The position numbers and the translations under genes were made by a program. From IMG/VR virus record IMGVR_UViG_3300025519_000001, positions 64,001 through 128,000 of that record: a stretch of 64,000 nucleotides of DNA; one strand, given 5' to 3'. Under the pieces are notes generated by a model. That model saw only the letters and a list, made by a program, of their open reading frames with translations. It ran no database searches and was not told the DNA's origin. Below, one piece after another: positions 8,361-61,129 of the stretch (positions are counted from its first letter, which is position 1; the number at the start of each line of letters is the position of its first letter). Source of the DNA: a virus.

Positions 8361-8378
8361 ATAAAAGACACGTTTCAT
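8361..8378. repeat. ATGAAA-N6-TTTCAT dyad at the left border of the CRISPR cassette
   Basis: ataaaa-gacacg-tttcat. Confidence 0.6.
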
Positions 8379-8400: not shown

Positions 8401-8443
8401 GTGCGAATCCCAAGCGAACATAAAAACTCTAGGAGATTCGCAC
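8401..8443 (+). promoter_or_regulatory. CRISPR leader inverted-repeat motif, type I-C-like (copy 1)
   Basis: gtgcgaatc-N25-gattcgcac; near-identical copy at 10500-10542. Confidence 0.7.
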
Positions 8444-8452
8444 CAAATTTAC

Positions 8453-8622
8453 AGGGCGACTCGGCGTCCAAAATCGAGAAAGCATGTGAATTTACATATG
8501 ATTTACCTATTTCACATGCACTCGATAACGTATCTATATTTTAAAATGTGCTTATAGATACGACCATTCTCGTTTTTATAGGAGAATGCACTTTGTGCGA
8601 ATAAATATGCACACTTTTTGCT
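8453..8622 (+). ncRNA. Cas12f tracrRNA (copy 1)
   Basis: gggcg-actcgg-cgtcc hairpin, atcgag..ctcgat stem, two more stems, anti-repeat cactttgtgcgaat (8589-8602); architecture matches my recollection of the As/OsCas12f1 tracrRNAs. Confidence 0.8.
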
Positions 8623-8835
8623 GTTGCAATTCGCACATGCACATAAAGTGTGAGAAGGGAGACTAAGGCTAAAGTCTTTGCTAGGCTAGTTGCAATTCGC
8701 ACATGCACATAAAGTGTGAGAATGGGAGAATGTAGATCGTGACTCTGCCTTATAGTTGCAATTCGCACATGCACATAAAGTGTGAGCTAGATCGACTATA
8801 TATGCGGAGCTTAAAAATTATTGCAATTCGCACAT
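8623..8835 (+). CRISPR. CRISPR mini-array: 3 identical 32-nt repeats, a degenerate 4th, and 3 spacers (34, 34, 33 nt)
   Basis: GTTGCAATTCGCACATGCACATAAAGTGTGAG at 8623-8654, 8689-8720 and 8755-8786; partial repeat at 8820-8835. Confidence 0.95.
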
Positions 8836-8850
8836 ATATAATGTTAAAAT
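8821..8850 (+). promoter_or_regulatory. Putative cas12f promoter overlapping the terminal repeat
   Basis: TTGCAA-18 bp-TAAAAT with an extended TG; RBS gagggg follows, then ATG at 8868. Confidence 0.5.
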
Positions 8851-8867
8851 AATGAGGGGTTTTATAT

Positions 8868-10478
8868 ATGCCTAAAAAAGAAAAAGATGATAATAAGATT
8901 GTGAAAATTGTAAAAGTAGAGATTGATAGGATTGTTGGAATAAAAGAAGATCATTTTAATGTTATAGCAAAAAAACTTCAAAGCGAATCTCTTGATATGC
9001 GAAATCAATTTATCGCAGAGTTATGGAAGTGGAATAATTTTGAAGATGACTATAAAACAAGATACTACTCTAATCCAGATACAAAGGAATATTTATTTAA
9101 TAAAAAGAAAGGGAGTCCATATGGATCAATAAGGGGGTATGCTGAGGACGTAGTGAAAGAAAATAAAATATCGTATTCTGGTATAATTAGTGCAAACACA
9201 AATAAAGCTCTTAGTAGATGGAATAAATTCTTAAAAGATCGCGAAAACTATAGAGAAGGAAAATATCCAGCAATACCATGTTTTACAAGACCAGAAATTC
9301 TATTTCGTGCTTCTGATACAGAGATAATTAAGAAAGATGCAAAATATGAATGCAAATTACCTTTACTTGGTAGAGATGGAGTTAAAATTGCTGATCTTCT
9401 AGTTAAAAAATATGAAGAAGAAAAACGCACTGAAAAACTAAGAAGAGAAGAATTAAAAAAAGAATATAAGAATCTTGAAGAAAAAGGCGTAGAAATAACC
9501 AAAGAAATTAAAGATAAACTGTGGATTAAAGTTAAAAATAAAATTAAAGAAAAGAGTGAAGAAGAACTTAAAAATGATGAACCGATTATCACCTCTAGTA
9601 GCTATCAAGCTATTTTGAAACTATCTGATACATATGATAATACAACAATCATAAACAGAATTATTAATGGCGAATATAAAATGGGTGAAAGCAGTTTACG
9701 AAAATTAAAAAACAAATGGATACTATTTATCACATACAGTTTTGAAAAGCAGTCAAAGGGGCTTGATCCAAATATAATTTTGGGTGTAGATATAGGAGTT
9801 AATGATCCAGCACATATGATAGTTTATGATTCCAATAATAAAAAATGGGGGAAAAAGAAATGGATTGATGGTAAAGAAATCGAAGCGTTTCGTAAGAAAC
9901 GTGATGTTATGAAGAGATCAATACAAAAACAAGCTGCTTATTGTGGAGAAGGAAGAAGAGGACATGGGAGGAAAACAAGAATGAATGCGGTTGAAAAGAT
10001 TGATGGAATGATTAAGAGATTTAAAAATACATGCAACCATAAATATTCTAGATTTATTGTTGATTTTGCTTTAAAAAACAATTGTGGAGTAATTCAGATG
10101 GAAAACTTATCAGGAATTGCTGATGGAGAAAAGAAAGCAACATTCTTGGGTGATTGGACTTTTTATGATTTGCAACAAAAAATAAAATATAAAGCTGATG
10201 AAGTTGGAATTAAAGTTATATTTATTAAACCAAATCACACGTCTGCAAGGTGTAGTAATTGTGGTTTCATTCATGATAATAAATTAAAAGATATTTGGAG
10301 ACCAGAAACAAAACAATTCAAATGTATGAAGTGTGACTATGGACATAGGCGATTTGTCCACGCAGATGATAATGCAGCTAGGAATATTTCGCTTCCAGAT
10401 ATCGAAAATATTATCGAAGAACAACTAGACCTCCAAAACAAAGAAGCAAAACATGCATTAAAGTATATTGCAGAATAA
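8868..10478 (+). CDS. cas12f: Type V-F Cas12f1 (AsCas12f1-like, TnpB-derived) RNA-guided nuclease, 536 aa
   Basis: RuvC-I GVDIG (D308), RuvC-II QMENL (E412), CSNC..CMKC zinc finger, RuvC-III HADDNAARNI (D500), GRRGHGR and WTFYDLQQKIKYKA blocks; adjacent to array and tracrRNA. Confidence 0.9.
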   Translation: MPKKEKDDNKIVKIVKVEIDRIVGIKEDHFNVIAKKLQSESLDMRNQFIAELWKWNNFEDDYKTRYYSNPDTKEYLFNKKKGSPYGSIRGYAEDVVKENKISYSGIISANTNKALSRWNKFLKDRENYREGKYPAIPCFTRPEILFRASDTEIIKKDAKYECKLPLLGRDGVKIADLLVKKYEEEKRTEKLRREELKKEYKNLEEKGVEITKEIKDKLWIKVKNKIKEKSEEELKNDEPIITSSSYQAILKLSDTYDNTTIINRIINGEYKMGESSLRKLKNKWILFITYSFEKQSKGLDPNIILGVDIGVNDPAHMIVYDSNNKKWGKKKWIDGKEIEAFRKKRDVMKRSIQKQAAYCGEGRRGHGRKTRMNAVEKIDGMIKRFKNTCNHKYSRFIVDFALKNNCGVIQMENLSGIADGEKKATFLGDWTFYDLQQKIKYKADEVGIKVIFIKPNHTSARCSNCGFIHDNKLKDIWRPETKQFKCMKCDYGHRRFVHADDNAARNISLPDIENIIEEQLDLQNKEAKHALKYIAE

Positions 10479-10499
10479 ACTTTTTATACATTCTCTCTG

Positions 10500-10542
10500 G
10501 TGCGAATCCCAAGTTCACATAAAATCCCTAGAAGATTCGCAC
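10500..10542 (+). promoter_or_regulatory. CRISPR leader inverted-repeat motif, type I-C-like (copy 2)
   Basis: gtgcgaatcccaagttcacataaaatccctagaagattcgcac. Confidence 0.7.
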
Positions 10543-10558
10543 TTCTAATAAACATTAA

Positions 10559-10811
10559 GGGGCGACTCGGTAGAATGGAACATCTTAGTCAGTCATCCGT
10601 CCTAAATCGAGATAGTGCGGTTATACATATTTAACTTAACCGTTCACACTCGATAAGGTATCCCGAAAGGGTGAAACCCTACTCACAAAATCCGAGTAGG
10701 CACTTCATACAGAATATTTATGTATATTTATTCACACTTTCCGCAGTTGCAATTTATATGTACGTATGAAGTGTGAGAAAATACTAGATTAAGTCTTGTT
10801 ATGAAATTAGC
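10559..10811 (+). ncRNA. Second tracrRNA fused to a single variant repeat (10746-10777) and flanking guide (natural sgRNA/omegaRNA-like)
   Basis: Same stems as copy 1; anti-repeat cacttcatac (10701-10710) is perfectly complementary to gtatgaagtg in the variant repeat GTTGCAATTTATATGTACGTATGAAGTGTGAG. Confidence 0.8.
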
Positions 10812-10953
10812 TAAAGATATTACTTCGGCTCTGATTGAGCGATTCCCCCTAGAGTATGAAAAAGAAAATATTAAAATAAAAAATATTAAAGATAAAGATT
10901 TGGTTAAACGAATTAAAAAGAAAGGGTTAAGCGTAGAGTTGATCACAAAATAA
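10777..10953 (+). pseudogene. 5'-truncated ORF remnant or small ORF (..MKLAKDITSALIERFPLEYEKE..ELITK*)
   Basis: Open frame starts at the repeat 3' end; the ATG at 10801 has no RBS. Confidence 0.45.
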
Positions 10954-10956
10954 AAC

Positions 10957-10974
10957 ATGAAAGATGCATTTCAT
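10957..10974. repeat. ATGAAA-N6-TTTCAT dyad at the right border of the CRISPR cassette
   Basis: atgaaa-gatgca-tttcat. Confidence 0.65.
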
Positions 10975-11070
10975 TAAATGATGTGATGAAGCTTGAGAAT
11001 AAAAGTTATTGTTACAATTGAACTATTAAAATAAAAAATATCAAGATAATTCGAGAGGAGTATAAACAAA

Positions 11071-11244: not shown

Positions 11245-11250
11245 AATAAA

Positions 11251-11645
11251 ATGGATTTGGGGTTAAAAAAGGCGGAAGACACGAACGCTGGATTTCGTTT
11301 GCCCTAAAAAAAGCAAAATACAGTAAAGTTCCACACTACAAACACTGTGCTGTTGTAATCAAGGGTGGAAGGCCAATTAGTATAGGAATTAATAAAACAA
11401 AAGCGGGATGTCTGGGAGATCCAATTTATTCTTTCCGCCAATGGCACAGTGAATTTGATGCCCTTTGTAACCTTGATGAGTCTCAAATTAAAAATGCTAT
11501 CTTGTATGTCGCAGGATGGACAAAGGGAGGTAATATTGCAAAATCCAAGCCATGCCCTCATTGTCAGGAGTATTTAAAAAAATTACCGTTAAAATCTATC
11601 GTATATTCAATGCCAGATGGAAGCTATGAAGAAATGGTTATATAA
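11251..11645 (+). CDS. Cytidine/dCMP deaminase-family zinc protein that needs a -1 frameshift (or a frameshifted pseudogene)
   Basis: Frame 11250-11645 encodes WHSEFDA and SKPCPHC (HxE/PCxxC) but has no start codon near its 5' end; ATG at 11251 with a strong RBS reaches it via A AAA AAG (11265-11271). Confidence 0.75.
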
Positions 11646-59420: not shown

Positions 59421-60677
59421 TCAAAATAAGCCCTTTATCTGAATTCGTTTGAATGAAATGACAGTTTCATCATCTATTAATCTTGCTTGCAATTGAACAT
59501 ACCCATACTGTTGATTATTATTTGCTTTTATGGTACAGCTTGTACCCGTTTGTAGCGTAATTAAAGCTAATGCTGTAGAACTTGATTTATCATCAGCCAA
59601 TAATGACCATTCTACTGATTTACTATTATCAACAACACCATTGTTTCTTACTTCTGCTGTGTATGTTTGAGTTTGATTGGATTTACACACATCAGAACCG
59701 GAAATAGTAATAACATAATTATCTTCAGCAACAGCATTGACTTGGATATTGATTTTACTAAATACCTTATTATCATCTGTCAAAGAAGCAGTAATCACCA
59801 CATTACCTTCGGACAAACAAACAATAAGTCCGTTTTCATCAACAGTAGCAATAGATTCATCAGAACTTTCAAATTCAATAGGTTTATCTACAACAATTCC
59901 ATTATCAATAACTTGAACATTTAATTGAGTAATATCGCCAACAGACAGTTGAATAAAATCCCCATTTAAAATTTTAATAATCTTCTCGTGAACGCTATTA
60001 TAGTAATCGGCAATCCTAAGTTCCACATTATCTCTAGCAGGATCAATCTGATGCTCTTCAAGTGTTAAGGTTATGATGCCGTCAACAAGACGGTCAATAT
60101 TCAATGTTCTCCAAGCACGACCATCAAAAATGAATCGCTGCTCTTTCTTAATCAATTCAGTAAATTGATTATTCTGAATCGTAATTTGCCGTCTTTCGCT
60201 AGGCATAATTAGAACTTGCCCATCATTTAACCCGAGAACAGATGAATTTGTGCTTAGTTGACAGAATTGTGCTTCTCGAATATCTCCATTCTCATCAAGC
60301 CACTTAATAGATGAAAAGCAACGCATTGCAGTTCCACGGCTATAAATATCACCTAAATTTTTATCTGCGATATAAGTTAGATAGTATTGATCCATATCAG
60401 GCCAATAAAATAAATATCCACTATCTAATTCTTGCGATGGGTGAGATATAAATTGCTTTTGAAACTTTGAATCACTATCATCAAGTATCCACACTTCTAG
60501 CGGAGTAGACGAAAGTGGAGTAGAAGGGAGATATGCATCTACCCGATAATATGATGGACTAGCGAAAAAATCAGATTCAATAGACCTTTTCGTTAATGCA
60601 ATACGAGAATCCCTTGGAGTTGATTTTTGAACGGATAATATGGCATTATAAGCATCATAATATCCCATAATTCTCAA
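59421..60677 (-). CDS. Head closure protein with Ig-like (Big_2) domains
   Basis: FESSDESIATVDENGLI..LSEGNVVITAS. Confidence 0.7.
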   Translation of the reverse strand: MRIMGYYDAYNAILSVQKSTPRDSRIALTKRSIESDFFASPSYYRVDAYLPSTPLSSTPLEVWILDDSDSKFQKQFISHPSQELDSGYLFYWPDMDQYYLTYIADKNLGDIYSRGTAMRCFSSIKWLDENGDIREAQFCQLSTNSSVLGLNDGQVLIMPSERRQITIQNNQFTELIKKEQRFIFDGRAWRTLNIDRLVDGIITLTLEEHQIDPARDNVELRIADYYNSVHEKIIKILNGDFIQLSVGDITQLNVQVIDNGIVVDKPIEFESSDESIATVDENGLIVCLSEGNVVITASLTDDNKVFSKINIQVNAVAEDNYVITISGSDVCKSNQTQTYTAEVRNNGVVDNSKSVEWSLLADDKSSSTALALITLQTGTSCTIKANNNQQYGYVQLQARLIDDETVISFKRIQIKGLF

Positions 60678-61129
60678 CTCCCTTCGGGATTATAGTTTTT
60701 ATAACTGTACTGAATCATCAGTCCATTGGCACGTTCCATAATGCTATCGCGTTCATCCATTTTTGCTTTTAAATTTTGCGATTCAGCATAACGTTTAAAA
60801 TCTGAATTTGACAAAGCCAATCTCATTTGCTCAATATTATTTACTTCTCTGTCCATCCAATGATATTGCATAAGAGTTGCAAGAATCTCTTGCTCTATAC
60901 CATTTAAATCAACATTGAAAATTTGTGCATCATCATCTCGATCTTCTAAGTCTTTTTGACAATACACAAAAAATGGAATTGCGCTAATCAAAAAACCCTT
61001 TAAAAAAGATTCATAAGAATCAACAGATTTTTGATATAAAGCATCAAGATTGTAATCTTGAACTTTTGTTGAGAAACGAGAATAAATTGTCTGATAGGGT
61101 GTCATAAATAGCCCCCTATAATCATACAC
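60674..61129 (-). CDS. Putative head-tail adaptor
   Basis: TPYQTIYSRF, EQEILA; gene order. Confidence 0.6.
   Translation of the reverse strand: MYDYRGLFMTPYQTIYSRFSTKVQDYNLDALYQKSVDSYESFLKGFLISAIPFFVYCQKDLEDRDDDAQIFNVDLNGIEQEILATLMQYHWMDREVNNIEQMRLALSNSDFKRYAESQNLKAKMDERDSIMERANGLMIQYSYKNYNPEGS

Follow-up and report, generated by a model that had tools for sequence, protein, structure and literature searches.

A phage-borne type V-F1 Cas12f1 locus with two leader motif-tracrRNA-array cassettes and a second array that ends in yyaC

Organization of the locus

The window, a stretch of 64,000 nucleotides (positions 64,001 to 128,000 of IMG/VR record IMGVR_UViG_3300025519_000001), belongs to a 154,759-bp phage genome with a 127-nt terminal overlap, which also encodes a tape measure protein, serine and tyrosine integrases and DNA polymerase III alpha. 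In the window, the Cas12f1 ORF sits between two tracrRNA-repeat units (Table 1), and the second leader hairpin is identical to the first at 37 of 44 positions. No Cas1 match was found in the whole 154,759-bp genome, so the locus has no adaptation module, as in type V-F1 systems. A single cas12f copy is present in the genome and no transposase ORF was seen adjoining it. An earlier note on this DNA, made from the sequence, had described a phage-borne, tracrRNA-type Cas12f that has two RNA units and lacks adaptation genes, a description that the ORF, the tracrRNA model matches and the missing cas1 bear out. The module is likely to be a type V-F1 (V-U3) Cas12f1 system carried by a temperate SPbeta-like Bacillota phage, with two duplicated cassettes, each made of a leader motif, a tracrRNA and an array.

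Table 1. Features of the Cas12f1 locus, with positions in the window
Feature	Position	Strand	Remark
Leader hairpin 1	8401..8443	+	222 bp 5' of repeat 1
tracrRNA 1, diverged	8454..8620	+	anti-repeat ~8586-8615
CRISPR array 1	8623..8850	+	three 32-bp repeats, three spacers, truncated terminal repeat
Cas12f1 gene (V-U3, AsCas12f1 clade)	8868..10478	+	536 aa
Leader hairpin 2 (distal motif of type I-C leaders)	10500..10542	+	246 bp 5' of repeat 2
tracrRNA 2, AsCas12f-type canonical architecture	10560..10742	+	anti-repeat ~10700-10730
Array 2, first repeat (only one kept in the window genome)	10746..10777	+	
3' remnant of phage yyaC (spore protease, PF06866)	10778..10953	+	begins at codon 182, base 2

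Two features flank the module. A short dyad at 10957-10975, directly 3' of the yyaC stop, marks the point at which a sibling contig (L151, 968-985) diverges into different genes, and a similar dyad lies at ~8361-8378, 5' of leader 1. Sites within one mismatch of it number ten in the genome, compared with 0-3 in shuffles, and the dyad is a possible cassette-exchange site. Further downstream, at 11245-11610, there is a deaminase-like reading frame with an apparently disturbed start, where no + strand ORF of >=50 aa was called.

The Cas12f1 protein and its relatives

The protein matches PF07282 in a profile search, and its closest solved relatives in a phmmer search against the PDB are AsCas12f1 and OsCas12f (E 1e-66 to 1e-63). 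Foldseek likewise retrieved AsCas12f with an E-value of 1e-34, against 4e-12 or weaker for TnpB. In an alignment with 25 homologues, the RuvC residues D308/E412/D500 and the zinc finger cysteines C462/C465/C486/C489 are invariant or near-invariant, in agreement with the intact RuvC acidic residues and zinc finger reported earlier, and from the residues present the enzyme appears to be catalytically intact. It has the traits of a type V-F1 effector: a length within 400-600 aa, a tri-split RuvC, a TNB zinc finger and Cas12f1 as nearest relative. By analogy with known Cas12f1 biology, a Cas12f dimer would load the tracr:crRNA and cut DNA beside a T-rich, probably TTC, PAM.

A Lys/Glu-rich insertion of ~70 aa, modelled confidently as three helices, lies between WED strands (residues ~175-243, window 9390-9596); according to the alignment it is common to P0002 and P0003, partly shared by P0004 and missing from AsCas12f1. 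With 536 aa the enzyme exceeds AsCas12f1 in size and is therefore of modest value as a compact editor.

Just 5' of cas12f, a sigma-70-like promoter with an extended -10 overlaps the truncated repeat that closes array 1 (window 8821-8850); promoter sites of that kind are not enriched over shuffles. An autoregulatory guide against the cas12f promoter was considered and ruled out, the best match being no higher than 16/20.

In a tree whose outgroups included two TnpB-like ORFs from the window phage genome itself, the protein was nested deep among array-bearing Cas12f1, away from the TnpB outgroups, with long outgroup branches and an uncertain root. These two other ORFs (G000:C1:31000-32286 and 59896-60960) were judged TnpB-like from their sequence. 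The earlier note had proposed the locus as an intermediate between TnpB and CRISPR systems and named a Cas12f/TnpB phylogeny and profile comparison as a check; the tree places the protein deep within Cas12f1 and not near TnpB.

Viral contigs that carry Cas12f1, a tracrRNA and an array with no recognised cas neighbours are frequent, and Cas12f without adaptation genes is established (PMC7229846; PMC10691335). Multiple tracr copies are present in 12 of the 44 phage loci, dispersed across the tree; in eight of these 12 the copies form two tracr-repeat units, as in the isolate Alicyclobacillus phage MMB025. On the 44-locus tree, the extra-tracr label changes at least 10 times on well-supported branches, which means that duplication or loss occurred repeatedly. 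In three loci of related phages (L065:5362-5510, L067:5266-5410 and L056:6397-6660), additional tracr copies are attached to a single or partial repeat, in one case after a tRNA, and these look more like the fixed-guide unit described in the earlier note. An SPbeta-like contig (L008:1950-2900) carries about five tandem tracr-like copies 5' of one cas12f, and in L068-L070 a Cas12f-like gene adjoins an array whose 28-bp repeats are type I-E-like and recur with a 61-bp period.

Two tracrRNAs with diverged repeats

A covariance model was built on 12 related units, with those of the window left out. It found exactly two matches in the window, at 10560-10707 (75 bits, full model) and 8454-8571 (38 bits). 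Three stems of the tracr family covary, with 15 of 16 pairs changed on both sides, far above slid controls, and both units fold more stably than shuffled sequences (z -5.8 for unit 1 and -2.8 for unit 2). The tracr architecture in the window is like that of the AsCas12f tracrRNA, and it was compared with that of relatives by model. An Rfam search gave no match. Both units have the long tracrRNA with conserved stems and an anti-repeat that is typical of type V-F1. The tracr2 sequence is identical in siblings L001 and L012 and in the stretch present in L151.

Repeat 2 is identical to repeat 1 at 23 of 32 positions. The anti-repeat of tracr1 is predicted to form duplexes of -20.6 kcal/mol with repeat 1 and -19.9 kcal/mol with repeat 2, whereas that of tracr2 reaches -18.6 kcal/mol with repeat 2 and only -11.7 kcal/mol with repeat 1. 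Strict orthogonality of the two RNA pairs is therefore not supported: tracr1 pairs with both repeats, and a tracr pairs best with its own repeat in only six of 21 units. Because tracr1 pairs with repeat 2 and tracr2 poorly with repeat 1, the two sets would be at most one-way orthogonal. Two tracr:repeat sets for one nuclease amount to a natural experiment on scaffold tolerance, of use in sgRNA engineering.

It could be that only unit 2 works, unit 1 being a duplicate that is frozen or in decay, or a set of guides with a regulatory or non-cutting role. Consistent with this, tracr1 scores about half as many bits as tracr2; its first two stems are canonical, but it lacks the conserved A-rich loop of the family, the loop of its last stem being changed. 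In addition, two strains with wholly different arrays 2 share the same array 1. Yet tracr1 retains four well-paired stems of different sequence, as its folding z-score reflects, the three repeats of array 1 are identical to each other, its anti-repeat duplex differs from that of unit 2 at two positions on both sides, and equally low-scoring tracr copies adjoin arrays in other relatives. We consider this reading of unit 1 rather unlikely.

Array 2 varies between sibling phages

Array 1 consists of identical 32-bp repeats at 8623, 8689 and 8755, with spacers of 34, 34 and 33 nt, and a truncated fourth repeat at 8820. In L012, whose Cas12f is 98% identical to that of the window, array 1 is the same base for base, and array 2 contains repeat 2 five times with four 34-nt spacers. 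In L151, array 2 contains repeat 2 twice and has two spacers that differ from those of L012, the latter of the two running into a degenerate repeat end. Six different unit 2 spacers are therefore found across these two sibling contigs (~98% identical), and a third sibling contig (L001) stops precisely at the end of repeat 2. As in type V-F1, the effector adjoins an array with unique spacers. Array 2 is variable between strains and array 1 is unchanged.

The earlier note had read unit 2 as an omegaRNA-like fixed guide. Since L012 and L151 carry differing spacers at the same site, unit 2 is a CRISPR array and not a fixed guide, and these arrays refute the TnpB intermediate as an account of its origin. 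Taken by itself, the window does lend itself to that reading: a single repeat with none downstream, a tracr and repeat that adjoin each other and might be transcribed as a single sgRNA-like RNA, and a protein for which guided_TnpB is the best NCBIfam family above cutoff. Apart from the sibling arrays, the reading is contradicted by the protein, whose nearest relative is AsCas12f and which branches within array-bearing Cas12f1, by the lack of a transposase, by the full 32-bp repeat and CRISPR leader motif and by the guide itself, which is a fragment of yyaC (see below). The guide is not taken from DNA flanking a transposon end next to an arrayless locus, as in TnpB-omegaRNA (OMEGA) systems, and the locus has neither an IS200/IS605/IS607 transposase nor multicopy mobility. 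An intermediate between TnpB and CRISPR is thus barely credible here; with Cas12f deep inside an array-associated Cas12f1 radiation and a single repeat left by a deletion into yyaC, the locus is a variant of a known V-F1 system and no evolutionary missing link. It is a real type V-F1 system whose guide cassettes have been duplicated, and it is probably active. A single repeat with a 'fixed guide' in one assembly may be a collapsed array, and such cases call for caution.

The junction between repeat 2 and yyaC

An exact search with the first 24 nt of the supposed guide led to bacterial yyaC genes. The open frame 3' of repeat 2 matches phage-type YyaC proteins (PF06866), among them P0132 (239 aa), and window positions 10780-10950 encode 57 of 57 aa identical to P0132 residues 183-239. 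What had been taken for a guide is the first 34 nt of this yyaC remnant, which occupies the place where the siblings hold a multi-spacer array. The start of P0132 is the ORF directly after array 2 in L012, and in L151 the order is intact: tracr2, array 2, a ribosome-binding site and an intact 239-aa yyaC. YyaC homologues are present in other Bacillota phages as well. An attP site within a host yyaC was rejected as the source, the fragment being the phage's own 239-aa yyaC. As read from the aligned siblings, a deletion has left this genome with a lone repeat 2 joined to yyaC. The lost DNA, which ran from the 3' end of the first repeat 2 to yyaC codon 182, amounts to 661 nt relative to L151 and 827 nt relative to an array of the L012 type.

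The junction falls exactly at the 3' end of repeat 2, with zero homology to the yyaC flank on the left side. The yyaC bases just 5' of it, removed in the window genome, are TTC, a triplet found at 1.7% of yyaC positions. The 34 nt of the guide match the intact yyaC of L151 at 34 of 34 positions, with TTC in front, and the yyaC of sibling L149 has one synonymous base difference from the guide, at position 5. The precise junction at the repeat end, together with the TTC in yyaC, points to a yyaC-derived spacer followed by a deletion between spacer and protospacer, and we lean towards this origin of the junction. The leader end of array 2 would have gained a yyaC spacer, from the phage's own gene or an identical one of a sibling, and would have become self-targeting. 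Recombination between the spacer and its protospacer, 0.7-0.8 kb downstream, would then have deleted the PAM along with most of yyaC and what remained of the array. Loss of the PAM in cis would end the self-targeting, and the residual guide would still match siblings with an intact yyaC.

Three other explanations of the junction were weighed against this one. The junction could be an assembly chimera, in which a strain with a yyaC-matching spacer was misjoined to yyaC and the real genome keeps both array 2 and yyaC. The population is heterogeneous, L001 ends exactly at repeat 2, and a 34-nt identity between spacer and protospacer is a classic site for such a misjoin. However, the 127-nt terminal overlap suggests a final k-mer of 127, far exceeding the repeat length, and a 50-aa remnant ORF is recorded on two contigs (JGI and ENA, possibly sharing reads). 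A chimera also requires a yyaC-derived spacer, and we hold it to be improbable. A one-step aberrant half-site integration, in which host Cas1-Cas2 linked an uncut yyaC end, trimmed of its PAM, to the first repeat on its spacer side, would give an equally precise junction with the PAM removed. Full acquisition and subsequent recombination make the more parsimonious route, nothing speaks directly for half-site integration, and it seems distinctly improbable. Finally, in a random deletion the TTC would be a coincidence. The lost first spacer might have given short homology on the right side, but the break would have to fall precisely where the repeat ends and, on the other side, next to a triplet of ~2% frequency, and we hold this to be distinctly improbable too.

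Spacer targets and PAM

Array 1 contributes three ordinary spacers and the sibling arrays 2 six; all nine were without a target in the collections searched, namely the phage's own genome, GenBank phages, plasmids, 40 related viral records and all fetched loci. Exact scans of IMG/VR with two spacers gave no target, and a scan of metagenomes with the repeat pattern yielded chance matches and, beyond these, just the L002 locus, which was already known. Targeting of a host chromosome was also rejected: 26-28 nt matches to the yyaC genes of Scopulibacillus and Aquibacillus reflect a conserved protein motif and lack TTC, and they do not identify the host. A putative TTC PAM is deduced from one inferred protospacer, at the yyaC junction, the sole junction supporting it. 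TTC is also the PAM of type I-C systems. SpCas12f1 combines a TTC PAM with a 32-nt repeat (PMC12255294). The suggestion that the system serves competition between phages is plausible by analogy and with one match on its side, that of the residual guide to the sibling yyaC with its TTC; the other spacers had no target in the collections searched.

A type I-C leader motif upstream of both cassettes

Searching 301 Bacilli genomes with the 43-bp hairpin motif gave 12 matches, against 0 for a reversed control. Nine of the 12 sit 156-202 bp 5' of arrays with 32-bp type I-C repeats, and one of these nine directly follows cas1c-cas2. Subtype-specific motifs 100-200 bp upstream are a known feature of type I-C leaders, and integration in type I-F is steered by leader motifs to diverse repeats with 5'-GT (10.1101/2023.05.26.542337). 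In the phage Cas12f loci, the motif lies 168-246 bp 5' of the first repeat, and nearly all of them have the tracrRNA within this interval. A period of 11.05 bp and its phase were fitted on host leaders alone and then applied to the phage distances; 11 phage motif-to-repeat distances fit this period (p 0.0008, from few, partly related loci). Both units of the window have the traits of a type I-C leader, a distal inverted-repeat motif upstream in helical phase.

Because a type I-C leader motif precedes both units, with the tracrRNA inside at a phase of ~11 bp, we suggest that host Cas4-Cas1-Cas2 may write spacers into both. A putative host type I-C Cas4-Cas1-Cas2 would add them by way of the borrowed leader motif, the 5'-GT and the 32-bp repeat length. 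Leader-directed integration into diverse repeats starting with GT would let the 3' half of the repeat drift together with the anti-repeat. We tentatively propose, as a plausible reading that falls somewhat short of probable, that the Cas12f1 cassettes are hijacked type I-C leaders into which a tracrRNA has been fitted in whole helical turns, programmed by the host at two sites, and that the window captures a self-amputation by a spacer from the phage's own yyaC, leaving a residual guide against intact siblings. In four loci (L011, L039, L047 and L052), the whole hairpin or half of it lies downstream of the array, between the truncated last repeat and the cas12f start, which the leader model leaves unexplained.

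In a partial literature search, no paper was found on a tracrRNA embedded in a leader or on a type I-C adaptation donor for V-F1. Spacer gain by cas1-less type V systems has so far been a question with indirect support, and with an in-phase type I-C leader motif ahead of both tracrRNA-array cassettes the idea of host adaptation becomes directly testable, on two natural substrates and with one host Cas4-Cas1-Cas2.

Comparison with known systems

The window system shares its RuvC and zinc-finger fold with Cas12f1 systems (AsCas12f1 7WJU, 8J12 and 8DZJ; OsCas12f 9NZQ; SpCas12f1 9I8Y), and neither it nor they include cas1/2/4 (PMC7229846; PMC10691335). With SpCas12f1 it has in common a 32-nt repeat and, putatively, a TTC PAM (PMC12255294). 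Unlike these references, it is phage-borne, has the ~70-aa helical insertion and two tracr-array cassettes with diverged repeats, and carries its tracr inside a type I-C leader and a second array amputated into yyaC. The ancestral RuvC fold, and possibly a contiguous scaffold-guide transcript, are shared with TnpB-omegaRNA systems (ISDra2, ISFba1). In contrast to them, the window has no transposase or transposon end, its guide is not the flank of a mobile element, it has true repeats, a leader and spacer turnover, and its structural match to TnpB is much weaker than that to Cas12f.

Adaptation borrowed from a host has been proposed before, from type I-B for V-F1 (PAMPHLET, 10.1101/2024.04.09.587696) and from type I-E for the Thermus phage Cas12r (10.64898/2026.04.20.719267). 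The window system resembles both in lacking its own cas1/2, in spacer turnover and in a putative PAM and a repeat length that fit a host type I system; it differs in that the donor here would be type I-C and in that the evidence includes a leader motif and its phasing. Viral CRISPR mini-arrays involved in competition between viruses (PMC11656645) are, like these arrays, short and virus-borne, and the sole target found here lies in a close sibling. Unlike in such mini-arrays, both the effector and the tracrRNAs here are encoded by the phage itself, and its repeats are not those of the host.
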